A stretch of DNA of 64,000 nucleotides from Yuukianura sp. NJ FZ-2021 (lineage: Eukaryota), in NCBI GenBank assembly GCA_046563655.1, contig CM102283.1, positions 2,604,001-2,668,000 on the forward strand. The letters are read 5' to 3'. The position numbers were made by a program, and so were the translations under genes. How positions within the stretch are numbered: the stretch's first letter is position 1; each line of letters opens with the position of its first letter. Below the pieces are notes generated by a model that worked only from the letters and a program-made list of their open reading frames with translations, was not told where the DNA came from and searched no databases. This document shows, piece by piece, positions 4,617 through 30,308 of the stretch.

Positions 4617-7600
4617 ATGGCAACAGAGGGAAAAACATACGGCCCAACGGAAATCGCCGGCAGTGCTCTGGATTTGATTGGCCACACGCCACTTTTGGCC
4701 TTGGACAGAATTTGGCCAGGGCCTGGCCGAATCCTGGCCAAATGTGAGTTTATGAATCCCGGAGGAAGCATCAAGGACAGGTCGTCACTCGGTATGATCC
4801 AACAAGCTTTGAAGTCTGGAGCTCTTGCCCCGGGGGGACCGATACTGGAGGTCACCAGTGGAAATCAGGGGTGTGGGTTGGCTATGGTGGCGGCAGTGCT
4901 TGGCCATCCAATGACCGCCGTCATGTCCAAAGGCAACAGTCCACAGAGAGCTACCATGGTCAGTTTGTTGAACTTTGACTTTTTGACTTTTCCGGTCTTT
5001 TTGGAGTTTTTGACTTTTTGACGCTTTTGAAGTTCTTACATTTTTGACGTTTCCTACCCTCTCTTGACTTTTTTCTTGTTTTTGACCTTTTCCTGACTTT
5101 TTTACGGTTTTGGCTTTTCATGTTTTTTTTGGACTTGCTTGGCATTTTTTAACAGAAAATACAAGGTAAAAAAAATTGTCAAATTTCGAGATCAAAGTAA
5201 TTGTGTAAAAATTAAAAAAAAAATGATACGGTCTGTGCCTCCAATCGCTTGGGTCGAATCGTGGGATTCGAACCCAAGGACTCTGCAATGTACAAGTTTC
5301 GCCATACGAGATAGAGAGGTTTGTTTTCAAGTGAGCTAACAGACCATTTCGTACTAGTCCTACAAAATTTGCAAAGTCTAGTTTTGGCAAATCGCAGCGA
5401 AAACGAATTTGTGCAACAATTTCTCTCACCCTCCACTACTACTCCACACAAGAGAAAAGCAGATGTAAAAGTATGACTCCATAAAAGATGACGTCGGTTG
5501 CTTACAAACTGCATCAAAAGAATTTAAAAAAAAATTAAAGAAGCCAAATTAAAAACGAAATGAAAATTAGTCATATCAGTAAAATCCAACAAAAGTAAAA
5601 TTTTACGAAAAATCGGATCGTGCATGGCGTTCCTCGTATTTGAACTCGCGACTGACGTCTAACGATTTTTCTTAAGGGGGGATGGGAGCCAGCGTTTGTT
5701 TACGATTTGGTGTCAGCCATTGCCATTAGTAACAAAGCAAAATCACTATGAGGAGGTAGGCTCCTCACGGGCCGCCACAAAGGGCACCCGGAATGAGAGG
5801 TCAAGGAACGGGTCACGAGAGTGACCCGGAACAATAAATCAGACGTGGAATGGGCAGATAAGGGGGAAAACTAATGTTTATTTAAATAAATAATGAAAGA
5901 ACGAAAGAACCAATATGTTGTGGGTATGTCCGGTGCTTGGTGGGTCTTGTCCAGTGGCGGTTGGGGTCACGGCGTGGTCCACTGACCAAAAAGAAGTATG
6001 GCTGCCGGTGGAGTGACGAGAGACGAGGACTGGACTGCTTTGCGGTTGGAAGTCGACTGCCAGGAGGAAGTGGGGATTGGGCTTCTGCCTGTGAACAGGC
6101 AGAAGTTCTAGAATCTTCTAGAAGGTGGTTTGGGGGAATCGGCTATGGGGGAAAACACACGGCGGAGTGGGGAAAACACCTTGTCATGTTCCTTTGCAGG
6201 AACATGGCAAGGGCTAGTGGGGGAAAATACTGGACTTGGGGAGGAGTCTTGGTTTCATTGGAAACCAAGACTAAAATAATGACGATAGGTGACACCGGAG
6301 GTCAGCACTCTCACAGGTCCCCAACGACCGCTAGCCGACCCGGCGACATGAACCGCGGGTGACCGACGGGTGGAGCCTGGAAATTGGGATTGGGGAGGGA
6401 ACGGAGCTACAAAACTCCGCTAACGCGATACTGGAGGGAAGCTACGTAATGTCAACGGACAACGTTTGGCGTTCTTTGTAGATTTCCGGCGGCGATTAAA
6501 CGAAGATGTGAGTGCACGGAAATAGCCAGTATGCTTCTTGCGTTTTCGGGGATGTCCAGTATCACGGGGTGGAACGGGGGCAGAACCATGATGGCTAGGG
6601 AGAGGGATACTTCCCGTGTGCTGTGGGGGACTGGGGGAACGAGAGTCACTCGCTGCGGGGGAGGAGTCATCAACCGAGCTGAAGTACTGGTCAGAGTCGT
6701 CGGAACAAATGTCTTCATCAGAATCCCATGACAAGTTGTAGTCGCCAAACTGCTCTCGAGGGGGACAAGGGAGACATTCCATTGACATGAGGGACTTCCA
6801 AGTGTCGTATGGCGGGGAGAATCCGGAAATTGGTTAAGGATGAGGAGACGTCGACGAACCGAGTCTTCTGTTTCTGCGTCTCTCGTGAAGTAGGGAATGA
6901 GTGGTATGTCGAGCCAGGAGACAATGTTTGCTGCGTATTCCGCTTCCGTGAGATTGGGGTGATCCGCTTCGGCCATCAAACGTGCATGTGTGATGAAGGG
7001 GTTAGGGTCATCGCCAAGGGACCATTCGGGAAATCCAGAAAAGTCGATGTTGAGGGGGACTGGTTTAGAGATGGGACTGGGAGCTGCGACTGAAGTTTTG
7101 GGAGGGGAAGCGACAAGTTCAAGGCGGGAAACGTTAACCCATTCATAAAATGAAGGGTTACCAGGCAGGTTGACAATGGCAACACTGTCGCTGGTGAGAA
7201 CGCTGTCGACGACATAGGGACCTTGCCAAGGGGAAGAGCCGTTGCCACTCTTTCCATTGCTGGGAAGGTGACAAATGACTTGGGAAGCTGGAGGGAACTT
7301 GTCGGAGGGGCATTTTCTTGAACGTTGGGAACGGGGCTTCTGGGGCTTCTTCTTTGTTGTTTTGGGCTTGGAAGCTGCAGAATCGCAACTGGAGGGAACG
7401 GTAGGGGGATCTGGAATGGTCACTGGCGGACTCTCGGCCGGAACAACACTAGAAGGTGCTACAGGGACGGGGGAACACTCTTGCTCAAGGACAAGTCCAC
7501 CTAAAGTATGAGCAGGGGCAATTGGGACAAACGATTCAGAACTGGTGGGATCAACAGCTTCGGGACTGGAGAAAACAAGAGCGACAGAAGAACCAGAGGG

Positions 7601-10600
7601 ACAACAAACGACAGACAGATCGCTAGTGCTGGAGGATCTGGAAACGATTTTAACTCCGCTAAGGGAAATACGGGAGGAATCGGAAATACTGGTAAGATCG
7701 GATACGCTTGAGACTGGGGAAATACGTGGGGACTCGGAAACACTGTAATTCTCGGAAATTCGGGGAGATGCGGAGAGAGCCGGCGTTACGGAAAGACTTG
7801 GAGATTCGGAGGGGGGAAATACGGAGATACTTCGAGTTTCGGAAAGACTGGCAGTTTCGGAGATACACGGAGATGCGGAAAGACTGGAAACTTCGGATTT
7901 ACTCTTTGGATCGGCGAAACCTGTGGGATCGGCTGTGCTCATGGGTTCGGGCGGAACGGAGAATCGGGAAAGAGCAATTGGACTTGGTACTGGGTCTCTA
8001 TTTGTTATGGCTAGAGGAGTGGGACTGGTTGGGGCATGAGAGGGGGAACCCTTAACGCTATTTCTAGCTTCGGGGCTACTAGGGGCAATGGATCCACTCT
8101 GATCTGGAAGTACATTCAGGGCATTAGGGTCACTCACGTCGATTGGATCAACCGCAACATTTGACTTCAACACAACATCAGAATCGGAAACAGCTTCTGC
8201 AGCTGCTCGTCTGCGAGGGACTGCGACTGGGAGGGACTGGTTTACGGAAACTTCATTTCTACGCAACAGGGAGAGTCTCGGCTTTGGTTGAGGTATCGTT
8301 TCCCCAACGACCAATTTTGAAGTACGAGCATCATCTGAATGGGAGCAGGGGCTTGGACATATCCGGTTATTTTGGGCAAAGAGCTCAAAGAACTTGAGTA
8401 ACTCTTGTGTGGGAGGGGGACATTGACTGGGCTTACGAGTAGCAACTCGCTTTCTCCGTCGTTTTGGGACAGGGGTGGGAATGTACCTTAAGACAAAATC
8501 GGATGGGGGTGGGGCAGGATTTGCAACTGGGGCAGGAGGCTGTTGCACCTGCATCAACAGCCGGTGGAGTTTTCCGCTTGCAGCATAACTGCATCGGCCA
8601 TTGTTGTTAGGACTTCCTTGATTTGCTGGAGGGAGGACATAATCATGGGACCCCAATGGGTATCCATGGTGTTCGGGACACTCTGGGTAAATGTCGGGGG
8701 TGGGGGAGCTACAGGGGAAACTCCAAGGGAACCGGCTGCTTGGGTCATGATGGGAGGGACGGAACTTCGTTGGGGTTGGGACCTGGTGTAAACCATGGGG
8801 AACTGGCGGGGACGAGGGGGAAGAGGTCGACATCCCGCAGCTATGGGGTCAATGCCTTGGGAACGCCAATATGCGTGGCAATACTTGCGGATGTGACCAC
8901 CACGGCCACAATAATGACAGATAGGGCGACCATCTTCTGTTCGGTGGTCCGAAGGAGAAGGCTGATAAGCCAAGGGCATACGGCGCTGCGGGGTGGAAGT
9001 AACTCCAGAGGCTTCTGAACCGTGGATGGAGCTGGTTGGACTGGAGTGATATGACATTCTGGACAATGATCTGAAACTAGACAAATAATTAGTAGGAACC
9101 AATATTTTTAGTTAGGGTGTTATAAAGCTATGAGTTATAAACTCAAATTCCACTAAAACACCAAAACTAGGGTATACGAGCCAAGCCACAGAGCCACACA
9201 AACCACAAGAATTAATCAAGGGCTAGGGATAACCAACCGCATAACACACCGATTTTTGGAATTGTGGGGTAGGTAGGGCATTCAGATTCAAAAATCTGAA
9301 AAATCCGACGAATTCTGACGATTAGGTAGGGTATTGCGTCGTGGGGATATGCGAAATCGCTGTTGGGGAATTATCCGACGAGTCTGGGGAAAAGTCGCAC
9401 CTGGTTGCGTCAAACTCGCAAGTGGTTGCGATCGGGGCAGACTGTGTAGTTGGATGTTGCAGTTGGGGGGATAACCAGTGGGACTTGGGAGAAAAACCGC
9501 TAAGTGTTTTAATTCTGGGGAAAATCGGGCAGCGTTTTGGTGCGAAGTGAGGGAATTCCAAATTGGGTTATGTTTCAATAGGGGGGGGCGAAGGGGCGGA
9601 TAAACAAATTGAAAAAAATTTGCTAAGTTGTGGGAAATTTGAAAAATTTGGGCAGCGTTTCGTTACTGAGTAAGGGAAATTCGAATTGGGTTATGCTTCA
9701 ATGGGGGGGGATACTAACTTTTGAAAAATCGGTTAAGGGTTTGGAATTTTTGAAAATTTTGGACAGGGTTTTGTTTAGGGATTCGAAATTTCAATTTAAG
9801 GTAAGGTTCAGGGAAGGGAAGGTCACTTGGAGGAGAGTCAATGACTTTATGTGGTAGTGGGACTACTTTTGGACTTTGGTGGGGCTGGTGGGGACGAAAA
9901 ATCGCTATGTTTTTAACTTTTGAAAAAATTTTGCGCGGGGAGGTTTAGGGAAAGCGATTTAGCGCAAAAAACGGGGTCACTTTTAAGGGACTGGGGGGAT
10001 AAACGCCGGGGGGTGGGGCGCTACAACGCAATAAACAACAACCTGACCTTTGATTTGACCTTGGTGGCTCTTCGGTGGCTCAGTAGTCGCTCGGAGGGCG
10101 GTTGTTCAGAAGAAAGTCGGTGGCTCAGAAGAGATACGGTGGCTCAGGAGAAAAATCGGTGGCTCTCGCTTCTTTGGCTCAATTGGGAGCTGAAAAAAAT
10201 CGATACAAAATTTAACAAAAATGAACAAAAAATGATCTAGAAAAGGAATTAATGTTAGGTAGGGATGTGGGAGTGAGGCTAAATGGGGTCAAATTGGGGT
10301 CAAAGGTCAAATATAGCCCGTCTGAGGCCCCACATATGAGGAGGTAGGCTCCTCACGGGCCGCCACAAAGGGCACCCGGAATGAGAGGTCAAGGAACGGG
10401 TCACGAGAGTGACCCGGAACAATAAATCAGACGTGGAATGGGCAGATAAGGGGGAAAACTAATGTTTATTTAAATAAATAATAAAAGAACGAAAGAACCA
10501 ATATGTTGTGGGTATGTCCGGTGCTTGGTGGGTCTTGTCCAGTGCTTGGTGGGTCTTGTCCAGTGGCGGTTGGGGTCACGGCGTGGTCCACTGACCAAAA

Positions 10601-12852
10601 AGAAGTATGGCTGCCGGTGGAGTGACGAGAGACGAGGACTGGACTGCTTTGAGGTTGGAAGTCGACTGCCAGGAGGAAGTGGGGATTGGGCTTCTGCCTG
10701 TGAACAGGCAGAAGTTCTAGAATCTTCTAGAAGGTGGTTTGGAGGAATCGGCTATGGGGGAAAACACACGGCGGAGTGGGAAAAACGCCTTGTCATGTTC
10801 CTTCGCAGGAACATGGCAAGGGCTAGTGGGGGAAAATACTGGACTTGGGGAGGAGTCTTGGTTTCATTGGAAACCAAGACTAAAATAATGACGATAGGTG
10901 ACACCGGAGGTCAGCACTCTCACATCACTGCTCAAACTTGCAAAAGTCGGCACTGTTTCCAATGGTTGACTAATCAAAGTTTTTCGCAGTATAGCAATTC
11001 AAACAAACTGGGACTCAACAATCAACTTGTATCCATGGAGACGGCTGATTTCAGTGCCGACATTTGCGAGTTGCTAAATAATGTCAGAATTACATCTACT
11101 TTTTCTTATAAGTGTCTTATTATAAAACCTAAAAATGCGTTTAAGGTGTCTAAAAATCCGGAAGACCATGGCGGACAATGATCAGGGACCAATTTCCCAA
11201 ATTTTGGTGTCATACAATACTTAGACAAAATTGGACTTTGTATCGTATTTTTAGCATCGTTTAGCAGCAAAATATCAAATTCTGACCCCTGATAATTCTT
11301 CCTCGTGTTTCAACGAATTTTTAGAGGTATTGTACAAATTTCTACGTCATTCCTGTGAGGACTTATAAGGCCTGGAAGTTAACCAATTTGAGCTGAAACG
11401 AGACCCCCCGTTGCTAAGGGATATGGGTCCTTAAGTCGAACGCGCTAACAGACCAATTCAAATAGAACTTCAACAAACTACTTTGATTTTACAACATTAC
11501 AACACTTACAACCAAGGTTTCTATAGCAACGAAACAGTTATCTTTAACAGGTTAGGCAATAAGTTCCGTTTTCTAAAAATGTCACTGCAAACATTTTTCT
11601 ACTCTGAACTTGTTTCTTTATTTGAGATAAAAATTTGCATCCAACTTATGCAAATAAAAATAAATTTATAAAAAATAAATAAAAAATAAATTTTTGTGGG
11701 GAAAACCAGCCCCCTGCAAATGGCGCCCATAGCAACCAACGCAATTTTTGTTTGTGACGTCACCCGCTGAAAAAATACCGTAATCGTCAAATTGCAACCC
11801 GCTGGCATTTATGTAAACAAGATGTGTCTTACGGGTTTCTATAGGACACCACCAATAATTGGCAGAATTTCGGTATTTTCAGCGGGTGACGTCATTTTTT
11901 TTCCACATGGCAACCAAACAAACTTTCCATTCGCACTACCTAGTAGTATTCTATTTACCTTAAGGGAAAACAATAAAAATATTGCCCGACATATTGCCTA
12001 ACCTGTGAAAGAAAAATCTATTTTCTTGTTTACGAACCTTGCTTCCAACTCTTTTTGACGTTGTGCGTCTTCCATGATCTTCGATCATCACTTTTTTTCA
12101 CGTTATTGGTCCGTAGATGCGAGCACTTGGAGCCAACGCTGTTCTGGTGGACCAAGTAGAGGGCAAACCAGGGAACGTGACATTTGCTGATGTTTCGGCA
12201 GCGGAACAACGTGGCCTTGACCTCGTCGCTTCAACTGGAGCCTACTATGTGGACCAATTCAACAATCAAAACAACATTTACTCACATGAAGTCACTACTG
12301 GACCGGAAATCTGGGCTCAAACGGGCGGTCACATTGATGCGTTCCTGGCCACGGTGGGAACGGCCGGAACGTTCATGGGCGTTTCCCGTTTCCTCAAATC
12401 CAAAAATCCAGAGATTTTGTGCTGCGCAGTGGAACCGAAAGGAGCTGAAGTGATCAGCGGTTGCGAAGTGGTGAAACCTTTGCATCTATTGCAGGGCAGC
12501 GGTTACGGAGAAGTACCGCGACTTTTCAAATTTGACACCGTGGACCACACCCTCGCAGTGACAGATCGTGAAGCAGTCGAGTATAAAAAGCTACTTGGAT
12601 CCAAGGAAGGACTCTACTTGGGATACACGAGTGGAGCCAATGTCGTAAGTTTCAAAATTTTTTGAAAAATTCTTAAGTTTTTGACTTATTTTTCAAAATC
12701 CTGAAATCCTTGAAAAACTTTTTTAGGCGGCTGCTGTGAAACTTTTGAAATCAGGAAAACTTCCGGCCGATGCCTGGGTCGTAACGGTTTTGAACGACAC
12801 TGGACTCAAATACCCGGAAATTGAAAATTACGAATTTCATGATGTGGAATAA
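4617..12852 (+). CDS. Cysteine synthase / beta-cyanoalanine synthase-like (CAS1), 331 aa, intact
   Basis: Exons 4617-4958, 12117-12644, 12727-12852 (phase-0 GT/AG introns). Fold-type II PLP motifs IGHTPL, KCEFMNPGGSIKDR (PLP Lys), EVTSGNQG, DQFNN, TTGPEIW, GTAGT, LQGSG, DTGLKY. Closely resembles the Tetranychus urticae CAS as I recall it. Confidence 0.92.
5258..5345 (-). mobile_element. tRNA-derived SINE-like head
   Basis: Minus strand has A-box-like TAGCTCACTTGA and B-box GGTTCGAATCC; no complete cloverleaf. Confidence 0.45.
5747..6315 (-). repeat. 3' LTR (569 bp)
   Basis: Near-identical to 10335-10924. Confidence 0.95.
6452..8833 (-). CDS. LTR-element ORF2 (793 aa): Ser/Pro-rich, with an integrase C-terminal GPY/F-like motif and no catalytic Pol domains
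   Basis: Uninterrupted ORF. PWQGPYVVDSVLTSDSVAIVNL...WVNVSRLE resembles the GPY/F module. No YxDD, D[ST]G protease, HHCC or DDE context seen. Basic NLS-like PKRRRKR. Confidence 0.75.
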   Translation of the reverse strand: MSTSSPSSPPVPHGLHQVPTPTKFRPSHHDPSSRFPWSFPCSSPTPDIYPECPEHHGYPLGSHDYVLPPANQGSPNNNGRCSYAASGKLHRLLMQVQQPPAPVANPAPPPSDFVLRYIPTPVPKRRRKRVATRKPSQCPPPTQELLKFFELFAQNNRICPSPCSHSDDARTSKLVVGETIPQPKPRLSLLRRNEVSVNQSLPVAVPRRRAAAEAVSDSDVVLKSNVAVDPIDVSDPNALNVLPDQSGSIAPSSPEARNSVKGSPSHAPTSPTPLAITNRDPVPSPIALSRFSVPPEPMSTADPTGFADPKSKSEVSSLSASPCISETASLSETRSISVFPPSESPSLSVTPALSASPRISENYSVSESPRISPVSSVSDLTSISDSSRISLSGVKIVSRSSSTSDLSVVCCPSGSSVALVFSSPEAVDPTSSESFVPIAPAHTLGGLVLEQECSPVPVAPSSVVPAESPPVTIPDPPTVPSSCDSAASKPKTTKKKPQKPRSQRSRKCPSDKFPPASQVICHLPSNGKSGNGSSPWQGPYVVDSVLTSDSVAIVNLPGNPSFYEWVNVSRLELVASPPKTSVAAPSPISKPVPLNIDFSGFPEWSLGDDPNPFITHARLMAEADHPNLTEAEYAANIVSWLDIPLIPYFTRDAETEDSVRRRLLILNQFPDSPRHTTLGSPSCQWNVSLVPLESSLATTTCHGILMKTFVPTTLTSTSARLMTPPPQRVTLVPPVPHSTREVSLSLAIMVLPPFHPVILDIPENARSILAISVHSHLRLIAAGNLQRTPNVVR
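7680..7900 (-). repeat. Degenerate 18-bp (6-aa) coding tandem repeat in ORF2
   Basis: ISETAS/LSETRS/ISVFPP/../LSVTPA/LSASPR/ISENYS/VSESPR/ISPVSS/VSDLTS/ISDSSR; CGGA recurs about every 18 nt on the + strand. Confidence 0.75.
8538..8575 (-). promoter_or_regulatory. Putative -1 programmed ribosomal frameshift signal
   Basis: G_GAA_AAC in the ORF1 frame (8575-8569), 6-nt spacer, perfect 8-bp stem GGCUGUUG/CAACAGCC overlapping the ORF1 stop. ORF2 is in the -1 frame. Confidence 0.7.
8554..9057 (-). CDS. gag: Mini-Gag ORF1 with CCHC zinc knuckle (167 aa from ATG 9057)
   Basis: RTEDGRPICHYCGRGGHIRKYC fits CX2CX4HX4C. No recognisable capsid domain upstream. Confidence 0.8.
   Translation of the reverse strand: MSYHSSPTSSIHGSEASGVTSTPQRRMPLAYQPSPSDHRTEDGRPICHYCGRGGHIRKYCHAYWRSQGIDPIAAGCRPLPPRPRQFPMVYTRSQPQRSSVPPIMTQAAGSLGVSPVAPPPPTFTQSVPNTMDTHWGPMIMSSLQQIKEVLTTMADAVMLQAENSTGC
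10317..10332 (-). promoter_or_regulatory. Degenerate primer-binding site (tRNA-Pro-like)
   Basis: TGGGGCCTCAGACGGG starts 2 nt after the 5' LTR; the canonical tRNA-Pro PBS is TGGGGGCTCGTCCGGG (12/16 match). Confidence 0.55.
10335..10924 (-). repeat. 5' LTR (590 bp)
   Basis: Near-identical to 5747-6315, with an extra tandem copy of GTGCTTGGTGGGTCTTGTCCA. Confidence 0.95.
11512..12041. mobile_element. MITE family M1 copy
   Basis: Terminal CCAAGGTT...AACCTTG plus subterminal AACAGGTTAGGCAATA / TATTGCCTAACCTGT inverted repeats, shared with other copies in the window. Confidence 0.7.
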
Positions 12853-13384
12853 ACCAAGAAATTGATTCTCAAAATTCATTAAAAAATGTTGTTGTTTTGG
12901 ATTACTTTTTGAAAATTAGTATAGTAGTGTGATCGCTAGTATCAGCCAAGAAGGTTGAAGATATGCAATTGGCCCGCCGGTCTTCGAAATGTTCAGGTTT
13001 TCCTAATTTTTATTTATTTTTTTTACTATATTTTACTGAAGTTTTTAAGAATTAAAGTTTTCAATGTGTCATTCTATTAACTACCAAACTATTACTCACC
13101 ACGAGACGCAATTTAAAAATGATGTATGATGTATTTTTAAAAGAGCGCGAAAACTATGTGCAGAACTAGAACAGTTTGAAAGGAATGTCTAACTTCGATA
13201 GAGTTTTAAGCATAAACTACTACATAAACTACTAAGCATAAAAGCATTGGCTAAATTCTACACTTTCTAAAATATTTTATAAATGATTTAAAACGCAAAC
13301 TCCCTATTATTAAATGAGCTTACAATATTTGTGTAAGTCGACAGTGGAACAGGATTTAAAAAAAATGGAACGACGCAGTTTGCC

Positions 13385-16013
13385 TTATCGAAATGCAAGA
13401 AGCAATGTAGTAACATTATCAGTTATAACTACCCCAAATATTGTTAGAACAAATTCGTTAGTGTCAAGCACAAAATGTTCTCCTACGCGGATAACGAGTG
13501 GCTTCTTTGACTTCCAAAATCGTCGACTGTAGCCCATTTGTCCGTGAATTTGAAACTGCCCAGCTCTGCAACACTCAAGTGAATTGGTAGAACAGAGTAC
13601 TGCCAGATTTATTATTGCTTTAAGTCCAACTGAAATTAGAAAGATGACAAGGACCATCACTTGTTGGAGCGCAATGTAGTCTCCACCCCCAAATTTTACG
13701 CACGCGAAGATGCCGAGGATGATTAAACCCTGACTCGCATAAACAGCAAATTCCATAATATTCGCAAAGATATCATTCACGAAGGCAGTCAGGACTTGAT
13801 GACCTGTGTATACCTTTTCATTGACCTTTCGCCGTGGTGAGTTTTGAATGTCAATGCATACACTGCAAACACAAAATATTCCAACCTCTTCTGCTTCATA
13901 TTCTCCTTTAGCTATAAGTGAAATACAGTAGTTTCTTCAACTTATTCCATGTGCAAAATACAAAACAAATGCAATTGACAAATGCAAAACTTGCAGCGCT
14001 AAATGGCAGTAAACCGACAAAATGAAACATGGAATGGCAAAGGGGGTATTTTGTAATGACAATTTGACCTCAGATTCATTAATTTTTTCACCCCAATGTA
14101 GTGCAATTGCAATTTGCTTTGTATTTTGCACATGGAATAAGTTGGAGAGACTACTGTACGAAAAGTATCCAACTTATGAAATGTGCAAAATACAAAACAA
14201 ACGACAATTGCACAAACCAGTATTAGAAAATTTCCTTACTCTGAGGTTCTGTTGTCATTATCAAATCTATCCAAATTGGATGATCCAATTGCAAATAGGT
14301 GGATTTTGCAATGGCAATTGGACCTCGAGGTCCTATTGCAAAATCCACCTACATGTATTTGCCTCAGAGTAATGAAATTTTCTAACCGCAGTTTGTGCAA
14401 TTGCCAATTGTTTTGTATTTTATAGATTTCATAAGTTGGAGACTATTCTGTAGCGTGAATTCGAAAAGAAATGTTCTTCAAACCTTAAGTGTTTGATCCA
14501 GTGGCGCAGGGAATTAGCGTATATGAGTAACAGATTAGCATACAGGTATAGTATGGATCCTGCGTGCACTGAGCACAAGCACATAGCGAATACCGCCAAG
14601 GAAACGGATGATGTCAACACATACTTGTTAATATCCTCAGCTCCGGTGAGAGCTTTTAAAATATGAGCAGCGAAAAGGTAGATAGAATTTGTAATTTGAT
14701 TGTCAGTGAGCGTAACGAACCCTAGTATTGCAGGAGTCCCACACATTTGTAAATAGAAATATGCCCAATACATAAGTTTGAAGTATGCCTCGAATTCATC
14801 TCCTTGGGAAGAATGTTGTAGCACGCCATACAGTTTGTCTGTAAATTACAAAATTGCAATGCAACTTGTCTAAATCCTGATTTTTTGAACCGGATTTATC
14901 CACGGATTTTTGCGGATTCGGATTATCCGAAATCCGGAGTTCAAAATTTTGAATCCGATTCTCTATTTCAGGCAATTGGCGGCAGTGGAAAATTGGATTT
15001 TCAGAAAAAAAGACAATTCAAATAAAAATTAAAAAAAATTCTTGTAAAAAATGAATAATTTGCAACTTCCGTAATGAATATTTATGCATTGGTGTAAAAC
15101 TCCTTAATCCTATTTATGCATTAATGTCAAAACTCCTTAATCCCATTATAAAATTCAAAAATTTGCTTATGGAAGTTACCATGTACTCCCGAAAATCCGA
15201 AACCGGATTTGGTCACGAGAAATCCGGATAAATCCGAAATCCGGATTTCTGAAAATCTTACAGATTTGAGTCTCAAATTGAGACCTAGATAGTGCAAAAC
15301 AAAAAATGTGAAAAGCATACGCAGGAATCTAAACCCAAGTTTCGTTGACAACAAAAAATTAATTTTCTTTAACAGGTTGGGTACTACCTCGCTTGTTGAC
15401 AAGAAAACGAAAAAAATCAAAGATTGGGACCAATTCTAGTACCAATCCAAAAAATTGGTACCAATTCGTATGCAAAATTTAAAAAATTCGGCTGTATTGT
15501 TATGACTACGATGCACTGAAATCGAAATACATTTTTGTCTTGCATAATCAAAAAAACGTTAGGTATTACCCAACCTGTTAAATAAAATCCAAGTCAACAA
15601 ACCTTGTCTAAGCCTAACTTGAAATTCACTTGAAGTAAATCGTTAATATTTTACTTACCAAGGTGATCATAAAATCGTAAGATGGACGAAACTAATTTGG
15701 ACACTTCTTTTGCATAGTGACAGTACCAGAGTTGAAATCCACACAACAAGGCAGAGTAAACAGGAAGTGCAACGCAGGAAACACATATTGGTGGAATGTG
15801 TCGAAAGAAAAACGCTGCATAGGCTTCAAATACAATCGCTTGAAGGTTGAAAGCTAAAGTCAGCGTCATAAACAACTTAATAACAAACAAGTTTTTGGAA
15901 CTGATCACTTTATATCCACTTTTTGTTGAAACTATTTTGAACGAATACACTTTCCATTTGAATCCTAAATCAATTGTCTTCAAAGCATAATCCCACGTTG
16001 CTTTAGACAGCAT
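13385..16013 (-). CDS. Multi-pass membrane protein, divergent gustatory/chemoreceptor-like family A, copy 1 (~395 aa)
   Basis: Exons 16013-15659, 14838-14484, 13862-13385 join in frame. Many hydrophobic helices. C-terminus KPLVIRVGEHFVLD...VITDNVTTLLL resembles the hexapod GR/OR-superfamily tail. Confidence 0.7.
13926..14156. mobile_element. Tc1/mariner-type MITE
   Basis: ~50-bp imperfect TIRs CAGTAGT..CAACTTATTCCATGTGCAAAATACAAA, flanked by TA on both sides. A related foldback element follows at ~14165-14451. Confidence 0.75.
14870..15270. repeat. Intronic element rich in ATCCG/CGGAT motifs (probable non-autonomous DNA transposon remnant)
   Basis: CCGGAT/ATCCG clusters at both ends; internal ~32-bp tandem duplication at 15080-15143. 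Confidence 0.5.
15334..15608. mobile_element. MITE family M1 copy
   Basis: M1 terminal and subterminal inverted repeats; similar to 44513-44782 and, inverted, to 17461-17720. Confidence 0.7.
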
Positions 16014-16649
16014 TTCTGTGCTGCTTGAAACTTGAAATGTGGCGTGGGCAAGAGTGTTACGACTTTTTAAAAGAAACTAAAATCCAAGCGAGGTGATAGC
16101 ATAAGTCAAATTTGTGTTATTTGTTTTGGTAACGTATTTTTATGAAGGTGTTTCAGAAAAATGAAATTCTACAAAATTATATGTTCAACACCTCTCCAAT
16201 TTTTAATACACAGAAAAAAATTCATTTACAATTGTGGTTATGACATGACGAAATTGTTAGGTTAGATTTGTCCAAAAGAAATTGTATCCGTTTTGGTCAA
16301 ATTTTAGTATTTTGACATTAAATTGCATCCGGAGGAAGTAGTATCTAAATATTTTTTAAAAACATAAAATTATGCCTACAAATAGTTGGTTTGAAACTGA
16401 TCCAACCTTGTGATAGATCATATGCGTATAATTTAAGCATAATTTTCATATTTTTTTTCTAAAAATATATTTTGAGCTTTCAGAAAAATGTCAGGAAATT
16501 GTAAATTAACTTTAAATTGGCAAGCGAAATTTTGAACATGAATTTACACTAATTTTCAACAATTTTTCGCATATTCGCGCAATTTGGAATACGGAATTGT
16601 GTATTCATGCAAACTTTACCGGTCTTAAACCTTTGAATTACGCACATAA

Positions 16650-16889
16650 TACTTGGGATGCACGAGTGGAGCCAATGTCGTAAGTTTCAAAATTTTTTGA
16701 AAAATTCTTAAATTCTGACTTAGTTTTTATAATCCTGAAATCCTAATACAAATTCTTTAGGCGGCTGCTGTGAAACTTTTGAAATCAGGAAAACTTCCCG
16801 CCGATGCCTGGGTCGTCACGGTTTTGAACGATACTGGACTAAAATACCCGGATATTGAAAATTACGAATTTCATGATGATGTGGAATAA
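16650..16889 (+). pseudogene. CAS 3' remnant (end of exon 2, intron 2, exon 3)
   Basis: Near-copy of 12615-12852 that starts abruptly at a duplication junction. Confidence 0.9.
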
Positions 16890-18761: not shown

Positions 18762-19294
18762 CTTTAAAAGCAGACCTCCGAAATTAGAGGGGGACCCTTT
18801 GCGCGGCAAGTAAAATTTTTGCTCCAAACGATTCCAAAACGTTGGTAGACGCACAATTAAATCAACGCTGAAAAAAAGTAATTTTAAAAAGTATGTTACT
18901 ATTTTCGATGTAATTTATACAGAATAGATTTACCGTAGTGTTTTCTTATTATTTTAATAATTTGTCGAATAATTTAACGAAGTTAACATGTGCTTGCCGC
19001 GGAAACCGTAATTTCGGAGGGTTCTTGGAAAGACCAGGGTCAAGGCCTTTAAAAGCAACCTCCGAAATTAGAGTTTCAATTTTTGCGACGATTAAATTGG
19101 TAGACGCACAATTAAATCAACGCTAAAAGTAATTTTAAAAAGTATGTTACTATTTTGATGTAATTTATACAGAATAGATTTACTGTAGTGTTTTCTTATT
19201 ATTTTAATAATTTGTCGAATAATTTAACGAAGTTAACATGTGCTTGCCGCGGAAACCGCAATTTCGGAGGTTTCTTGGAAAGACCAGGTCAAGG
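18762..19294. repeat. Two-copy tandem repeat (~250-285 bp units) in an intron
   Basis: Units start TTTAAAAGCA(G)ACCTCCGAAATTAGAG at 18762 and 19048 and share ~200 bp of near-identical sequence. Confidence 0.85.
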
Positions 19295-19535
19295 TTTGTA
19301 AACAAGAAAATAATTTTTCTTCAACAGGTTAGGCAATAACTCAAGCGTTTTAGATTTTGTTTAAAAATTATCAAAAATTGGTTCACCCTGCATTCCTATG
19401 GTAATGATTTATGCAATCAAACGGGATTGGGGGAAAATCGGGTGAAAAAATTGGTTGGAGCGAATTTTTTGCGTAAACAGGACTTATTGCCAAACCTCTT
19501 AAAGCAAAGCAATTTCGTTGCTATAGCAACCTTGG
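19289..19535. mobile_element. MITE family M1 copy
   Basis: CAAGGTTTG...AACAGGTTAGGCAATAA ... TTATTGCCAAACCT...AACCTTGG. Confidence 0.65.
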
Positions 19536-20247
19536 ACCAGGTGTCAGGAAAAAAATTTGCTCTTTACTCAATGACGGAGGGAGGGAACGATCTTTTTTTG
19601 AGACACCTTTTCTTATGGGAGTAAAGCCTTTGTCGCAATTTGGCTTTTCTTTATATTTGTTAAATGAACGGAACAGTAATGAAATTTTCTAACCCAATTT
19701 GCGCAATCGCCCTTTGTTTTTATTTTGAACATTTCCTAAGTCGCAGACTTTTCTGCAGCGTGTATTCAAAAATATGTTTTTCAAACCTTAAGTGTTTGAT
19801 CCAGTGGCGCAGCGAATTAACGTATATGAGTAACAGATTAGCGTAAAGATAGAATATGGATCCTGCGTGCATTGCGCACAAGCATATAGCGAATACCGCC
19901 AAGGAAACGGATGCTGTCAACACATACTTGTTAATATCCTCAGCTCCAGTAACGGATTTTAAAATATGAGCAGCGAAAAGATAGGCAGAATTTGTAATTT
20001 GATTGTCAGTGAACGTAAAGAATCCTACCATTGCAGGAGTTAGAAACATTTGTAAATAAAAATATGCGAAATACAAAAATTTGAAGGATGCCTCGAATTC
20101 ATCTCCCTGAGAAGAATGTTGTTGCACGCCGTAGAGTTTGCCTGTAAATTACAAAATTGTTATGCAGCATGGCCCAAAAGAAACACACAATATGTCAAAA
20201 CCATACGAAGGCATAAACCTAACTTCAACGCTAGCATTTGACGTAAT

Positions 20248-20549
20248 CAGTATTGCTGGATATCCACTTTTTCGACAGTTCATCCACGGCTGGCTAACCA
20301 GTGGAAGAAATGAACGAAATCCAAAGGGGCGGAGCGTTGCCCACGGGGTATGAATAATTTGAAAATAAAAAGCGGAAATTAAACTACTTCTTCGTGATGT
20401 GTAATTTAAATTTCATTGAACTTCGCGCTGAGTTTTTAAACCCAACTGATTTCTTCCATCCACCGTCCAGTAAGACCCCATTTTGTCCACTGGATATCTA
20501 GTGGAAGTGGCAATTAAGCCACTGGACGTTTAAGCATACAGCAACACTG
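20248..20549. mobile_element. hAT-type MITE (family H1)
   Basis: TIRs CAGTATTGCTG / CAGCAACACTG with an exact 8-bp TSD GACGTAAT. Confidence 0.85.
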
Positions 20550-21166
20550 GACGTAATCCTTAACGTTTTACTTACGAAGGTGATCATAAAATTGCACGAT
20601 GGACGAAGTTATTGCGGATACTTCTTTCATATAGAGACAGTACCACAGTTGAAATCCACACCACAAGGCGGAGGCAATAGGAAGTACAGCACAGGAAACG
20701 GATATTGGTGGAATGTGTCGAAAGAAAAATACTGCATAGCATGCAACTACAATCTCTTGTAGATGGAAAGTTAGTGCCAGCGTCAGGAACAATTTATTAG
20801 TAAACAAGGTTTTGGAACTGATCACCTTATATCCACTTTTTCGTTAAAACTATTCTGAATGAATATACTTTCCATTTGAATCCTAAGTCGATTGCCTTCA
20901 CAGCATAATCCCACGTTGCTTTAGACAACATTCAAATGCTTCTTTTTTGAAATGTGGCTTCCACAACTAGTTCTTACTTTTTTTTAAAAGCAACTACAAT
21001 CCAAGCGAGCTGATAGCCTGAGTCAAACTTGTGTTATTTTTGTCGTAACGTATTTTTGTGAAGGTGTTTCAGAAAAATGAAATTGTAGAAAATTATATGT
21101 TCAATACCTGTCCAATTTTCAATACACAGAAAAAAACTCATGTATAATTGTGGTTATAACATGACT

Positions 21167-23467: not shown

Positions 23468-24984
23468 ATGCCTTCAGGTGACGGTTCAGGAAAAAGCTAC
23501 GGCCCGACTAAAATTGCAGCCAGTGCTCTTGACCTCGTAGGAAACACACCGCTTGTAGCCCTCGACCGAATTTGGCCCGGTCCTGGTCGAATTTTGGGAA
23601 AATGTGAGTTTTTGAATCCCTGTGGAAGTGTGAAGGACAGATCTTCACTGGGCATGATCCAGAGGGCAATGACCTCCGGAGAGGTCAAACCTGGACAGCC
23701 GATTCTGGTGGCAACCAGTGGCAACCAAGGGTCCGGACTTGCCATGGCTGCAGCAGTTCTTGGAAATCCTTTGACCGCTTGCATGTCAAAGGGCAACAGT
23801 CCCCAGAGAGCCACAATGGTAAGCAATGTGAGCAGTGATGCTGGACATCCACTTTTTGACGTTTCGTCCAGTGGATAATATATTTCATCCGGAAGAAATG
23901 GCTGGATAAAATGGATAATAATATAGAATACTTCCACCTAATTTGATGTAGGTGGAAGAAATATTATATCCATCCAGCTACATTGAATGTGAGGTTTAAG
24001 GGGATTCACATATGTCTTAAGACAAAGAATGACAGCGCAGAAAAAATAAACAACCGAATGGGGCTCGAACGCACAACTTACTCCGAAGAATCTATCTACC
24101 ACTTGAGCTATCAGGTGTAGGACTGTGGTACAATATTGCCAAACGCTAAAGCAATGCTTTAAAATCTTTTGAAAAATCTTATAGCATAAAAATTTTAAGT
24201 TCTAAAAATTTTGATTATGGAAAACTTTCAAACATCCTAAAAAAACAAATCGCTGAAATTTTAGATGAGAGCTCTTGGTGCCAAAGTTGAGTTGGTGGAT
24301 CAAGTTGAAGGAAAACCTGGAAGCGTGACTGCTGCCGACGTCGAAGCTGCGCAGAAGCATGCGCAGGAACTCGTGGCTTCCACTGGTGGCTTCTACTTGG
24401 ACCAATTCAACCATGTCAACAACATTCACTCACATGAAGTCACTACTGGACCAGAAATCTGGACTCAAACGGGCGGTCACGTTGATGCGTTCCTGGCCAC
24501 GGTGGGAACGGCGGGAACGTTCATGGGCGTTTCCCGTTTCCTCAAATCCAAAAATCCTGATGTGATGTGCTGCGTAGTTGAACCGAAAGGGGCCGAAGTG
24601 ATTGCTGGATGCGCAGTCGTGAAACCGTTGCATCTATTGCAGGGCAGCGGCTACGGAAGAATACCGGGACTTTTCAAATTTGACATTCTGGACCACACTC
24701 TTGCTGTAACGGACCGTGAAATTGTTGAATACAAAAACCTACTTGGAACTAAAGAAGGACTTTACGTTGGATACACAAGTGCAGCCAATGTCGTAAGTTT
24801 CAAAATTTAAAAAGAATTGAAATTTTGATTTTTCAGTGTGTTCTAAATTAACTTGTAGGCTGCCGCTGTCAAAGTTTTGAAATCTGGGCAACTTGGTGAA
24901 GACGCTTGGGTGGTGACGATGCTGAACGATACTGGACTCAAATATTCAGAACTGGAAAACTATGAATTTCAGGACATTGAATGA
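23468..24984 (+). CDS. Cysteine synthase / beta-cyanoalanine synthase-like (CAS2), 334 aa, intact
   Basis: Exons 23468-23818, 24265-24792, 24859-24984. Same intron positions as CAS1; NPCGSVKDR, TSGNQG, GTAGT motifs. Confidence 0.92.
23833..23985. mobile_element. hAT-type MITE (family H1) in CAS2 intron 1
   Basis: CAGTGATGCTGGA...TCCAGCTACATTG with exact 8-bp TSD AATGTGAG. Duplicated copy at 29149-29309. Confidence 0.8.
24053..24117 (-). mobile_element. tRNA-like / SINE head in CAS2 intron 1 (paralogous copy at 29373-29441)
   Basis: A-box TAGCTCAAGTGG and B-box GTTCGAGCC on the minus strand; anticodon arm does not pair. Confidence 0.55.
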
Positions 24985-25118
24985 ATTTTTGTAAACTTTA
25001 TTTTCGAAATTTCTGCCTTTTTTCTTCCAATTTTCAAAATTTTCCAAAACGCTTGTCAGTTCCAACATCAGTGCAGATATTTATTAAGACAATTATTAGG
25101 TATATCAGTGTATTTTAA

Positions 25119-26430
25119 TTAAGCTCCATGTAGTGTCAATGTTAAACTTATGATATAATTTATCATATTTTCATTTACACTGATCACAATACCTCTGTCA
25201 CAATAGTTAAATCCCCACACCTGAATGCACATTTCCTAAGTGATTTGACTACCATAACATTATGTGTAATACCATTTGCACTTCTTCCCAATTGGTCTAT
25301 ATACTCACATGACCTGACATAAATCATTGCTCCTCCTATAATACATATATTTAAAAATGTGAAAATGAGTGCAGCGCAACTGAAAAAAGTAAAAGACGCA
25401 AGAGACAAGCCAAATCGAAAGCTAACACTAAAGAAAACTACACAAAATGATGTACCAAAGAGCAAAATAGAAGCAAGTGGGAGCGAAATTAAACAGTTGA
25501 ATTGTGTTAAATATAAATAAATAATCTTGTGGTAAAGTGCTTCTGAAACTGCTGAGTGACGGAATTGAGATTTCAACATTGATATTGACATCTCTAGCGA
25601 CAAAATTCCAATGATTGCATACTGAATGTACTTGTGCAACAGGAAGTAACCATGTATCCATATAAGTAGTAACAGCACAATAGTAGCAAAATATGCAACG
25701 TAAATCCTTGTATTTGAGTAGTCGTCGTACATCAAAACCCAGCCAAAGATTGTTTCAAGAAAGAGTTCAGTAGATTCAAATACTACAATCGCAAATACCA
25801 GCACGAAAGCTGGTATCACATATTTAGTCACAGTGCAGTAAGTCTTCAGAAATAGAAAATGAACATCTTTGTCCGCTACAAAAAGTATTTCATCTAAAAT
25901 AAAAATTAAAACGCTTAAATTAACACCAAGTTTAAGTCGAATTAATGACTGAAAAATCAGTAATTTCTTTAATTTCGCAGCAATGGAAAGAAAACGAGCA
26001 AAATAGCACGATTAAGAAAAAATCCATCATAATATTATGTTATTTTCCAATTACCTTTTTTTGCTGTTAGAACATGGTACAATATGTTCGTGTATTGTTG
26101 CCAATGTTGTTTGCCCCAAATCGCCATTACGTCTACGCTGATGTTGTGCATACCAAGCAACAAGAGTCCACCAAATCCTGCCGTGAAAATCGGATTCAAC
26201 CCAGCAGCATGATTTATACATACCAGCGTAGTTACCAGAATCACCGTACTGCCGTCGAAAATCAAGAGCAGGAAAGCCATTCTACGATACCACACGGACT
26301 CGTCCAATATAAATTTATTTTGTCGCTTGCTAAAAATAAGCGGATTTTGATAAGTGCGATGAGCATTTTGTATAGCAAGAAGCAACAAGGCTACCACTTG
26401 ATTCCGAGTTTCTGTGATACTTTTGGCCAT
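25119..26430 (-). pseudogene. Chemoreceptor-like family B, copy 1; 1-nt deletion near the 3' end truncates the last helix
   Basis: Exons 26430-26055 and 25893-25119. GTTAAATCCCC here vs GTTAAATTCCCC in paralogs at ~25212. Confidence 0.7.
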
Positions 26431-26630
26431 GGCAAACGACAGACACGAATTAAGCTCAGAAATATTCAACGTTTAGATCCACGCGTCTTATTAAACCTCG
26501 CATCATTAAATACGATAAATAACTAACAATATTGACAAAGAAAATGTTTCTGGAATATTATTTCGTTTTTCGAAGCTTTAGCCTTTTAGAAATGTTTAAA
26601 TTTTTAAGGAATTTTTAACATTCTGAAAAT

Positions 26631-26941
26631 CCAAGGTGGATAAACAAGCAAATACTTTTTCTTTAACAGGTTACGCAATACCTCGAGTTTTAAGTTTTTC
26701 GCATAAAATTTTCAATCCTGAGTTCACCTAGTTTCATTCGCGGTTAGTATGACGAAATTAAAAATTCGGAGAGATGGCTTTTGCTTTTTGAATTGGCAAA
26801 TTCAAAGTAGAAAAGGAGTAAAAAGTAGAAAAAACAAAAAAGGTGGAAAAAATTGTTTGACTCAGGATTATTAAAAAAAACTGGACTTATTGCCTAAGCT
26901 GTTAAAGGAAAGCCATTTCGTTGTTATAGCAACAACCTTGG
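26631..26941. mobile_element. MITE family M1 copy
   Basis: CCAAGG...AACAGGTTACGCAATACCTC ... TATTGCCTAAGCTGTT...AACCTTGG; absent at the equivalent position upstream of copy B2 (~31920). Confidence 0.7.
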
Positions 26942-27475
26942 TAGCATCTCCACTTCCTTTGGTAAATACGCAGTATGAACGAATTTAATTTCCTGAAATT
27001 GATCGTAGCTCACCTTTTCCATCAAGCAATAGAACTTAATGCCAAAGCAAATAAATCAGTAAACTATCGTACCGCCTTTCCGAATTAAACCGGAATTGGA
27101 CAAATCAGATAAAATGGATTAAAAACGGACTAGGGCTTGGGATTTGAATAATTTAAGGTTAAATATACATGAAATATTGAATATAATTACACCGACCTCA
27201 TTCTGATAATTTTCAAAAGAAACACACACAAATGTGTTTGCGTTTATTTCCGATTCAAAATTTCGTTTTTCAAGTTTCTGGTTGAAAACTGAAATTAAAT
27301 GTACAAAAATCACAGAACGAACACATTGTGAAAAACATTTTTTTGGTATTCAGGCGAAACGGAGAATTCTTTCTGTAAATATACTGAGACTGAGCAGCAG
27401 TGGTTCAAAATTTAGTTTTAAAATGGGACCAGGGATTACTACATTTTGAAATTTCGCGCTTAATTATCAACTAAG

Positions 27476-28844
27476 TTAATCGTGATGACTGCTGCGATGG
27501 TTGGCACCCTGAGGGACCCACCTTTAGGGTACCCTTAAACAAAAAACTAGCATTAAATGGTTGCTGCGTCACTACAACTTGTTTAAACGTTGTTTGGGAG
27601 CATATAGGAAAAAATTCAGGGGGCCCTTAATATCATAAAGAGGCCCTTAAGGGTCCGTTTTGTCGAGTTTCGCTATTTTCACGTTATCGTACCGAAAAGA
27701 TTAAAATTCTAAGTTGGAAACCCCAAGGTTCCTTGATTTAAAAAAAATAAGGGTCCATGGGCCCTTGACAAAATTTTTGAAAAAAACTCAATCTGGAGCA
27801 TGTCAAGGGCTTTCATTTGACACCAAGATGACCTCAATCGGTTAAGAACCTCCGGAGATACACGCGGGTGAACATTTCCAAAATGGCGACCTTGACCTCT
27901 CACAACTCAGCAACGGGTTGCGTTAGGGTCAAATTTTTTTCGCCAAAATTTTTCTTTCGAAAGGTATTTCATTCCCCCAAAATTTGGAAACGATCAAAAA
28001 ATACATGTAACACAACTTATTTAATTATTTTACACATTTCACAAATACTTACTGCAATTTTAAAATAACCTGTTTGAAAATTTTAAAATTCAAAACTTCA
28101 GTTTTCAGAAAAACTTGAAGAATGTTAAAATTTACTTCCGAGAAATTTTACTATCGTGGTCCATTTTTCAAAATCCTGAAAATTCTTCACCGAAGGCCCT
28201 ATGCACCACTGATTCATAAAAATAAAAAAACTTTTTTTGGAAATCAAGAAAAAAAATCAAAAATGGACGACTACACTTTTACCTTTACTTCAAGATAATA
28301 CTGCAACATTATTAAACTGCCACCTCCGAGATTCGTTGGCGGGACGGCGGGAATTTTTAGACCTTGACATTGACCTTGACCTCCGCTCCAGGTCATTGAA
28401 CTCTTGGAATTTACTAATGGTCCAGTACTTTCCGCAACTACTTTCCTTTCGTCTATGGTGTGTCTACCAGTTGAGTCCTTGTAGGTGACAACCTTCAAAA
28501 AGTTAACAAAAAAACAATTTCTTCAAAAATTTCAATTTTTTCAAAAATTTCAATTTTTTCAAAAATTTGAGCCATCTGACTTGAACTAGTTGTAGGACAA
28601 TGGTTGAAACGGGGCGTGGACTGTGATTGTGAACAGTCAGGTTGAATCGAGCGGTGTCTCCTGGCACAAATCCGGATTTTTCCAAGGTCAACTGATACTC
28701 TACTTCAGTTGGACAGAAACAGAGACATGTTAAGAGACTAAACGTGTCCACGTGATGTCGCTTGTTGATTGTAACTGGTTTCTGCGCATGTCCAAACAAG
28801 TTGAGGTCAAGGAATCCGTTGACAGTGAAGTACGAACTCACTTT
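27476..28844 (-). pseudogene. Truncated alpha-arrestin duplicate
   Basis: 28055-28844 matches 32933-33714 and 27476-27508 matches the last codons. The sequence between is replaced by ~550 bp of unrelated DNA; 5' exons are absent. Confidence 0.88.
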
Positions 28845-30308
28845 CTTGACCTCGTAGGGAACACACCGCTTGTAGCCCTTGACCGAATTTGGCCCGGTCT
28901 GGGTCGCATTTTGGGAAAATGTGAGTTTATGAATCCCTGTGGAAGTGTGAAGGACAGATCTTCACTGGGCATGATCCAGAGGGCAACGACCTCCGGAGAG
29001 GTCAAGCCTAGACAGCAGATTCTGGTTGCCACAAGTGGCAACCAAGGGTCCGGACTTGCCATGGCGGCAGCAGTTCTTGGAAATCCTTGACCGCTTGCAT
29101 GTCAAAGGGCAACAGTCCGCAGAGAGCCACAATGGTAAGCAATGTGAGCAGTGATGCTGGATAGCCACTTTTTTGACGTTTCGTCCAGTGGTCATATATT
29201 TCATCCGGTTTTATCCGGAAGAAATGGCTGAATAAAATGGATAGCAATGGATCCTTCCACCAAATTTGATGTAGGTGGAAGAAATATTATAATTCATCCA
29301 ACTACACTGTATGTGAAGTTCAAGGGGATTCACATGCCTTGAGACAAAGAGTGACAGTGTAGAAAAAATAAACCACCGAATGGGTCTCGAACCCACATCT
29401 CTTTACTCCGAAGATGCTGTCTACCGCTTGAGCTAGCAGGTGTAGGACTGAACTACACTATTGCCAAACGCTAAAGCAATGTTCTAAAATCTTTTGAAAA
29501 TCTTATAGCATGAAAATTTTAAGTTCTAAAAATTTTGATTCTACGAAACTTTCAAACATCTTGACAAAACAAATCGCTGAAATTTTAGATGAGAGCTCTT
29601 GGTGCCAAAGTTGAGTTGGTGGATCAAGTTGAAGGAAAACCTGGAAGCGTGACTGCTGCCGACGTTGAAGCTGCACAGAAGCATGCGCAGGAACTTGTGG
29701 CTTCCACTGGTGGCTTCTACTTGGACCAATTCAATCATGTCAACAACATTCACTCACATGAGGTCACTACTGGACCAGAAATCTGGACTCAAACGGGCGG
29801 TCACGTTGATGCGTTCCTGGCCACGGTGGGAACGGCCGGAACGTTCATGGGCGTTTCCCGTTTCCTCAAATCCAAAAATCCTGATGTGATGTGCTGCGTA
29901 GTTGAACCGAAAGGGGCCGAAGTGATTGCTGGTTGCGCAGTCGTGAAACCTTTGCATTTATTGCAGGGCAGCGGCTACGGAAGAATCCCGGGACTTTTCA
30001 AATTTGACATTCTGGACCACACTCTGGCTGTAACAGACCGTGAAATAGTTGAATACAAAAACTTACTTGGAACTAAGGAAGGACTTTACGTCGGATACAC
30101 AAGTGCAGCCAATGTCGTAAGTTTCAAAATTTAAAAAGAATTGAAATTTTGATTTTTCAGTGTGTTCGAAATTAACTTGTAGGCTGCTGCTGTCAAACTT
30201 TTGAAATCTGGAAAACTTGGTGCTGATGCTTGGGTGGTGACGATGCTGAACGATACTGGACTCAAATATTCAGAACTGGAAAACTATGAATTTGAGGACA
30301 TCGAATGA
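28788..30308 (+). pseudogene. CAS3: 5'-truncated duplicate with a chimeric N-terminus and a 1-nt deletion at 29087
   Basis: CAS homology starts at 28844; exons to 29134, 29589-30116, 30183-30308. CCTTGA vs CCTTTGA in CAS2 gives a stop at 29088-29090. Confidence 0.8.

Follow-up and report, generated by a model that had tools for sequence, protein, structure and literature searches.

An intron-bearing cluster of CAS genes

The stretch of DNA analysed here, called the window below, comprises 64,000 nucleotides of contig CM102283.1 (assembly GCA_046563655.1, positions 2,604,001 to 2,668,000) and contains a cluster of genes whose products resemble beta-cyanoalanine synthases (CAS) and cysteine synthases. 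A preliminary description, made from the sequence alone, had reported four CAS loci, two intact (CAS1 and CAS2), one chimeric (copy 3) and one reduced to a 3' remnant. Having defined loci by stop-to-stop frames, motif searches and inspection of splice sites, we found all four where they had been placed, on the plus strand (Table 1). The three exons of CAS1 join into one open frame of 331 amino acids, and the three exons of CAS2 encode 334. Shared phase-0 spliceosomal intron positions had also been proposed, and indeed all introns begin with GT, end with AG and are of phase 0, their two positions between codons being the same in every copy, intron 1 following the motif MSKGNSPQRATM and intron 2 following ...ANV. 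Both exon junctions are colinear and gap-free in comparison with homologues that have an uninterrupted frame, and the junctions correspond to residues 114/115 of the solved beta-cyanoalanine synthase chain introduced below.

Table 1. Coordinates of the CAS loci, the duplications that involve them and other features of the window
Feature	Position	Strand	Remarks
CAS1 exon 1, 114 codons from ATG at 4617	4617..4958	+	lysine motif for pyridoxal 5'-phosphate (PLP) and TSGNQG loop; donor GT 4959; PALP E 4e-22
CAS1 intron 1, 7158 nt, phase 0	4959..12116	+	acceptor AG 12115-12116
Retroelement-like insert within CAS1 intron 1	5744-10924		self-comparison
CAS1 exon 2, 176 codons	12117..12644	+	donor GT 12645; PALP E 3e-31
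CAS1 exon 3, 41 codons and TAA	12727..12852	+	after 82-nt intron 2
CAS2 exon 1, 117 codons	23468..23818	+	PALP E 3.5e-21
CAS2 exon 2, 176 codons	24265..24792	+	after 446-nt intron 1; PALP
CAS2 exon 3, 41 codons and TGA	24859..24984	+	after 66-nt intron 2
Copy 3 chimeric exon 1	28755..29134	+	new ATG 28755 in antisense arrestin-gene sequence
Copy 3 exon 2	29589..30116	+	encodes the same residues as CAS2 exon 2
Copy 3 exon 3, open	30183..30308	+	state common to CAS1 at 3/4 residues differing from CAS2
Remnant: exon 2 end (~30 nt), intron 2 and an open exon 3 (16761-16889)	16650..16889	+	88% alike to CAS1 3' end
Tandem duplication, ~5.3-kb unit	23527-28848 and 28844-33717	.	six colinear blocks, 78-93% alike (window self-comparison)
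Other tandem duplication	12615-16649 repeated as 16650-~22807		window self-comparison; starts 30 nt before CAS1 exon 2 end
Arrestin-domain gene (Arrestin_N, Arrestin_C)	33382-33939	-	Pfam
Duplicated arrestin-gene fragment, source of the new 5' end of copy 3	28503-28961	-	Arrestin_C match
Multi-pass membrane-protein genes	13385-16076, 17739-20843	-	no Pfam match
Multi-pass membrane-protein genes	25184-26472, 30502-31808, 57345-58880, 61661-62977, 63535-63999	-	no Pfam match
Dispersed repeat, ~270 nt, one pair inverted	15335-15608, 17461-17720, 44514-44782		

The GC content is 50-52% in the CAS coding sequences and 21-35% in the introns. Intron 1 of CAS1 is enlarged to 7158 nt because of the retroelement-like insert, which has direct repeats at 5744-6315 and 10331-10924 (about 575-595 nt, 95% alike) and open reading frames on the minus strand at 6452-8848 and 8554-9111, comprising a zinc-knuckle gag-like frame and a frame of 798 amino acids. 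These frames had no Pfam match. The GC skew of the insert is strongly positive (0.29-0.30).

These introns bear on the possibility that the cluster is bacterial contamination or an artefact of assembly. Contamination is refuted because the CAS genes carry introns, and the preliminary description had likewise judged it unlikely on finding the loci among animal genes. Its judgement is borne out by GT-AG introns of low GC content, one of them holding the retroelement-like insert, and by the interleaving of the CAS genes with animal genes, the flanking domains being arrestin, esterase and Pellino by Pfam. Short contigs from four public DNA runs, the best-matching of which may be the assembly's own source, were also placed on the window. 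Contigs of two studies cross the 16649/16650 junction of the remnant, contigs of two studies run from the CAS2 5' flank into exon 1, and a 715-nt contig from one sample covers 28277-28960 and crosses the junction at 28844; no single short contig from these runs covers the whole CAS region. Nothing was found that speaks for contamination or misassembly, and we give such an origin practically no weight.

As for the host, all exons of the Pellino gene taken together are 72.6% identical to Orchesella and 69.0% to Folsomia, compared with 55.8% to thrips and about 50% to a mite and a spider. In a single Pellino exon the values are 83% for both Orchesella cincta and Folsomia candida and 65% for thrips. 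Since Pellino is nearest to the two springtails, the host is most likely a springtail, and it is neither a mite nor a moth, just as had been proposed.

The CAS genes belong to an arthropod-type enzyme family

Pfam found PALP as the sole domain in the CAS proteins, which at their full length have neither a haem-binding N-terminus nor a cystathionine beta-synthase (CBS) domain, as the preliminary description had noted. The motifs that it quoted are all present and align without gaps against a solved beta-cyanoalanine synthase chain. Exon 2 matched the solved chains 6pmu, 7mfj and 6xo2, titled 'Beta-cyanoalanine synthase', with 215.5 bits, the next chain reaching 107.8 bits, and for exon 1 the corresponding scores were 141.9 and 72.8 bits. 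We take these three chains to be the Tetranychus urticae enzyme. The likeness to the spider-mite CAS that had been proposed is therefore upheld, both by 6pmu as the best solved match by a wide margin and by an arthropod-type clade with 100/100 support (see below). The lysine motif, the TSGNQG loop, the GTAGT loop and the TS(G/A)AN motif are conserved in the alignment of CAS1 and CAS2, and by established knowledge of O-acetylserine sulfhydrylases they correspond to the lysine that forms the Schiff base with PLP and to the loops that bind substrate and cofactor. Conservation of the PLP lysine in the arthropod enzymes is also stated in an extract of PMC4011162.

In a search of 5.8 billion proteins, 695 passed an E value of 1e-5, and identities over exon 2 were taken from the best 120 of these 695. 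The highest was an unnamed protein (74%), and among named species the closest were the springtails Orchesella dallaii (72%) and O. cincta (71%) and the sciarid flies Bradysia odoriphaga (72%) and Pseudolycoriella hygida (70%). Oribatid mites followed with 66-67%, many Lepidoptera with about 59-66% and other mites with 58-62%. In an exhaustive search of cluster representatives, no full-length row from an outside relative exceeded 52%. The best bacterial loci, from metagenome-assembled genomes (MAGs) of Thermomicrobiales, Acetobacteraceae and Rhizomicrobium, were 45-49% identical, and a metagenome scan returned 80 loci, all of bacterial type and at most 48% identical.

NCBIfam scoring was done on the full-length homologue P0001, which is 88% identical to CAS1. 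Its scores against the curated cut-offs were 275 of 344 bits for cysKM, 261 of 351 for cysK (TIGR01139) and 229 of 394 for cysM (TIGR01138), and the lowest among the cysteine-synthase-type models was that for CBS (TIGR01137), with 209 bits against a cut-off of 510. Bacterial CysK and CysM share the fold and the catalytic motifs with the window genes and provide the best models, cysKM and cysK; the loop reads TSGNQG in the window genes, in contrast to TSGNMG or T(S/A)GNTG in bacterial rows. A 9-residue insertion is described in an extract of PMC4011162 as common to the arthropod enzymes and their closest bacterial homologues. Residues 1-174 of exon 2 align to 165 residues of ordinary cysteine synthases and gap-free to 6pmu, and the extra residues are scattered over 7-13 gap columns, varying with the outgroup.

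Phylogenetic position and number of transfers

A FastTree tree was made from 141 rows, of which 56 were kept for IQ-TREE (327 columns). The other 85 were mostly distant representatives and distant bacterial loci, together with 6 of the 27 named arthropod rows, and the tree was built without Tetranychus, nematode, plant or CBS rows. IQ-TREE recovered an arthropod-type clade of 43 rows with 100/100 support and a long stem, bacterial-type rows lying outside, and the 141-row FastTree agrees. The rows outside the clade are unnamed representatives, an Acetobacteraceae MAG and a protein of Naegleria lovaniensis. The nearest outside relatives of the arthropod clade include this last protein (P0125), and therefore at least one other eukaryote has this bacterial-type branch.

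Within the clade, CAS1 and CAS2 are sisters (100/86), joined next by P0001 (98/94) and then by the sciarid flies (98/91). The Orchesella group joins weakly (85/37), and the Lepidoptera group with the mite Halotydeus (99/91). In the approximately unbiased (AU) test, neither a springtail-only clade (p 0.124) nor a hexapod-only clade (p 0.086) was rejected. One clade is recovered, but the tree gives no verdict on its history or on the number of entries into arthropods. A phylogeny of the kind suggested in the preliminary description thus groups the window genes with mite and lepidopteran enzymes, among bacterial-type cysteine synthases. The same description had seen a domesticated and amplified transferred gene that bears on how often this gene entered arthropods. 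Transfer and amplification are supported; the entry count is left unsettled by the two AU values.

A native metazoan enzyme, derived from CBS or of a nematode or plant type with no bacterial transfer, would readily have introns and ordinary animal neighbours, as the CAS genes do, and CBS chains score about 66-73 bits with exon 1. Nevertheless, the CBS model was the poorest of those scored on P0001, the CAS proteins have no haem or CBS domain, and the plant beta-cyanoalanine synthase 3vc3 reached 100 bits compared with 215 for 6pmu. The clade is also nested at 100/100 among bacterial-type rows, in a tree that held neither native CBS nor nematode rows, and the arthropod distribution is patchy, cysteine synthase being counted in 10 of 72 arthropods in an extract of PMC9128236. 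A native origin is consequently close to refuted.

The sciarid homologues P0004, P0007 and P0003 lie on contigs of 1.6 and 64 Mb and are nearer to the window genes in the tree than those of Orchesella, an order to which the AU test does not reject the alternative (p 0.124). Perhaps there was a single entry of the family into arthropods, after which it was passed on among soil arthropods as eukaryotic DNA, the sciarids taking their genes from a springtail-like donor after the introns had been gained. We consider this improbable; if it were true, the sciarid genes would carry introns at the same two phase-0 positions. More generally, the two introns are a usable marker, and if other lineages have them as well, they would distinguish vertical descent or a transfer between animals from several separate transfers out of bacteria.

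Comparison with described enzymes

The T. urticae enzyme Tu-CAS (PMC4011162) resembles CAS1 and CAS2 in its signature motifs, its gap-free alignment over exons 1 and 2 and its single PALP domain. It is judged to belong to the same clade by way of other trombidiform mites, and its identity to the window genes is about 60%, estimated by eye from the alignment. The mite and lepidopteran genes are intronless according to an extract of PMC4011162, whereas each intact gene of the window has two phase-0 GT-AG introns, and the window also has an array with partial copies. The lepidopteran enzymes (BSAS/CAS, such as Pieris rapae PrBSAS1-3) fall in the same arthropod-type clade at about 59-66% over exon 2, and duplicated paralogues with differing kinetics are already known in Lepidoptera (PMC5492076).

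The O. cincta gene Ocin01_09285, annotated 'Cysteine synthase' (P0006), and its O. dallaii homologue (P0002) belong to the same clade with 71-72% over exon 2, but in a neighbouring subclade apart from the window genes. The nearest named relatives are the sciarid proteins P0004 (B. odoriphaga) and P0007 (P. hygida), whose hosts are Diptera, unlike the springtail-like host of the window. Ocin01_09285 appears with a Methylobacterium best hit in a 2016 list of transferred genes (PMC4987106). In 2014 the gene was found in no arthropod then sampled besides mites and Lepidoptera, as far as an extract of PMC4011162 states, and one collembolan is among the 10 of 72 arthropods with cysteine synthase in the extract of PMC9128236. 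Our literature search found no paper on the enzyme in springtails, sciarids or oribatids, save that count and the O. cincta supplement. The O. cincta and F. candida genome papers do not mention it in their main texts, and 'cysteine synthase' is absent from the F. candida supplementary text files examined. Both the family and its presence in springtails are therefore already on record, through the annotated Orchesella cysteine synthase and the 2016 O. cincta list. The new points are modest, namely the two introns gained after transfer, an array that arose locally through two tandem duplications, and a truncated copy that still seems to be under selection.

Two tandem duplications with breakpoints inside CAS genes

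Two tandem duplications, each broken at one end within a CAS gene, account for the local array. One unit, of about 5.3 kb, carries a CAS gene from about codon 20 on, together with part of an arrestin-domain gene and, on the minus strand, a membrane-protein gene of two exons. In copy 3 the likeness to CAS2 starts inside exon 1 at about 28844 (equivalent to 23527), so that the CAS junction lies at about 28844-28848. Because this breakpoint fell inside the CAS gene, copy 3 lacks a start of its own and is joined to an antisense arrestin fragment. A 1-nt deletion in a T run at about 29086 leads to a stop at 29088-29090.

The first 30 nt of the other duplication unit are the end of CAS1 exon 2, and hence a lone intron 2 and exon 3 are found at 16650-16889. 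This remnant is the left edge of the second unit. Its exon 3 has 4 synonymous changes, 1 replacement and an in-frame insert of 3 nt, and its intron 2 has diverged by about 12%, all counted by eye on small numbers.

Selection on intact and partial copies

Rates of nonsynonymous (dN) and synonymous (dS) change were estimated by the Nei-Gojobori method with a custom script. Between CAS1 and CAS2, dS is 0.73 in exons 2 and 3 and saturated in exon 1, and dN/dS is 0.17 in exons 2 and 3 and 0.07 in exon 1. By these values CAS1 and CAS2 are old paralogues. Of 155 columns with a conservation of 90% or more across the 41 other members of the clade, CAS1 departs at 1 and CAS2 at 9, the latter including a glycine adjacent to the PLP lysine and a glutamate adjacent to the substrate loop. 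In the IQ-TREE tree the CAS2 branch has a length of 0.32 compared with 0.047 for CAS1. Between CAS2 and copy 3, exon 2 shows 16 nucleotide differences, of which 14 fall at third codon positions, and the difference in intron 1 is 9.8%; over exons 2 and 3, dN/dS between the two is 0.06. Taken as a whole, these ratios indicate that purifying selection has acted on CAS1, CAS2 and copy 3.

Copy 3 therefore appears unlike a long-dead pseudogene, which suggests that its break is recent or an error, or that exons 2 and 3 are still used. It might be a working chimeric gene now or until very recently, or its exons 2 and 3 might be spliced to transcripts started at CAS2, the deletion being recent, polymorphic or a sequencing error in the T run. 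The exon 2 proteins of copy 3 and CAS2 are identical despite the nucleotide differences given above, where by our own arithmetic a copy that had been neutral since the duplication would be expected to show about 20 or more amino-acid changes. The low dN/dS and the chimeric frame, open from the ATG at 28755 to the deletion, point the same way. On the other hand, the frame is broken as assembled, and the three derived replacements in exon 1 include one in the conserved WPGPGR motif. Use of copy 3 is accordingly a tentative proposal, to which we give somewhat less than an even chance. Partial duplicates that look selected are a small example of tandem duplication building new gene forms from a foreign gene.

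Proposed origin and function

With a probability of about 85%, we conclude that the CAS genes are nuclear genes of a springtail-like hexapod and members of the arthropod beta-cyanoalanine synthase / cysteine synthase family, and that the family stems from a bacterial cysteine-synthase gene by horizontal transfer. Gene structure, family placement and animal genomic context are shown by the present analysis, as are the conserved PLP-lysine motif, substrate loop and glycine-rich loop and the purifying selection on CAS1, CAS2 and copy 3. After the transfer, the lineage would have gained the two phase-0 introns, an older duplication would have produced CAS1 and the faster-evolving CAS2, and the two later tandem duplications, breaking inside CAS genes, would have left behind an isolated last exon as well as a copy that is truncated at its 5' end and joined there to new upstream sequence.

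Each intact gene is predicted to encode a PLP-dependent enzyme of about 36 kDa. The enzyme would form aminoacrylate on the cofactor and add cyanide to give beta-cyanoalanine, H2S being released from the cysteine thiol, or alternatively it would add sulfide to give cysteine from O-acetylserine. Cyanide detoxification is probably the use to which the cluster is put, to judge from the characterized relatives. The mite enzyme catalyses both reactions and favours the cyanide one 33.7-fold according to an extract of PMC4011162. The O. cincta homologue is listed as a transferred gene under 'cyanide metabolic process', and the same list (PMC4987106, supplementary file 2) also holds two NIT4-like nitrilases. 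These would consume beta-cyanoalanine, which suggests a complete foreign route from cyanide to asparagine or aspartate in springtails. Microbes, fungi, litter or cyanogenic arthropods could be the sources of cyanide in soil.

Alternatively, the main role might lie in sulfur metabolism, either the synthesis of cysteine from O-acetylserine and sulfide or the handling of sulfide in wet soil. Springtails feed on detritus and fungi and not on cyanogenic plants, a diet that speaks for a sulfur role, and the CAS family sits among cysteine synthases in both the tree and the NCBIfam scores. That the mite enzyme does both reactions agrees with such a role, but its strong preference for cyanide does not, nor do the transferred O. 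cincta nitrilases (PMC4987106), which would use beta-cyanoalanine. In addition, a search confined to the 64-kb window revealed no serine acetyltransferase. We regard sulfur metabolism as an unlikely main role, though not a negligible one.

Several points weigh against the conclusion that these are transferred genes of a springtail-like host used against cyanide. A preference for cyanide rather than sulfide is extrapolated from the mite enzyme, which is about 60% identical, and the springtail identity of the host is drawn from one gene. In CAS2 the G adjoining the PLP lysine has become C and the E adjoining the substrate loop has become V, so that the activity of CAS2 may differ. Copy 3 carries a frameshift. 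Finally, P0001 scores below the CysK, CysM and cysKM cut-offs, and therefore the family is not ordinary CysK or CysM.

This enzyme is a classic example of cyanide tolerance that arthropods owe to a bacterial gene. In 2014 the pattern of spider mite and Lepidoptera was reportedly read as two independent transfers tied to plant feeding. From the window and the database matches, the same clade occurs in mostly non-herbivorous arthropods, namely springtails, sciarid flies, and oribatid, astigmatid and other trombidiform mites. The link to herbivory is thereby weakened and the count of transfers reopened.

Other features of the window

Two families of membrane-protein genes have been co-duplicated with the CAS genes, one of them present in at least 5 copies in the window. 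No kinship between the two was detectable (blastp E > 1). The membrane-protein gene adjoining CAS encodes a protein of about 420 amino acids. The Pellino gene region (44000-52000, with FHA and RING exons on the plus strand) has an unusually strong positive GC skew of 0.24-0.31 across 8 kb. In all four runs, bins with the dispersed repeat of about 270 nt had 30-100 times the contig word depth of the bins next to them, and this repeat is therefore a high-copy element.

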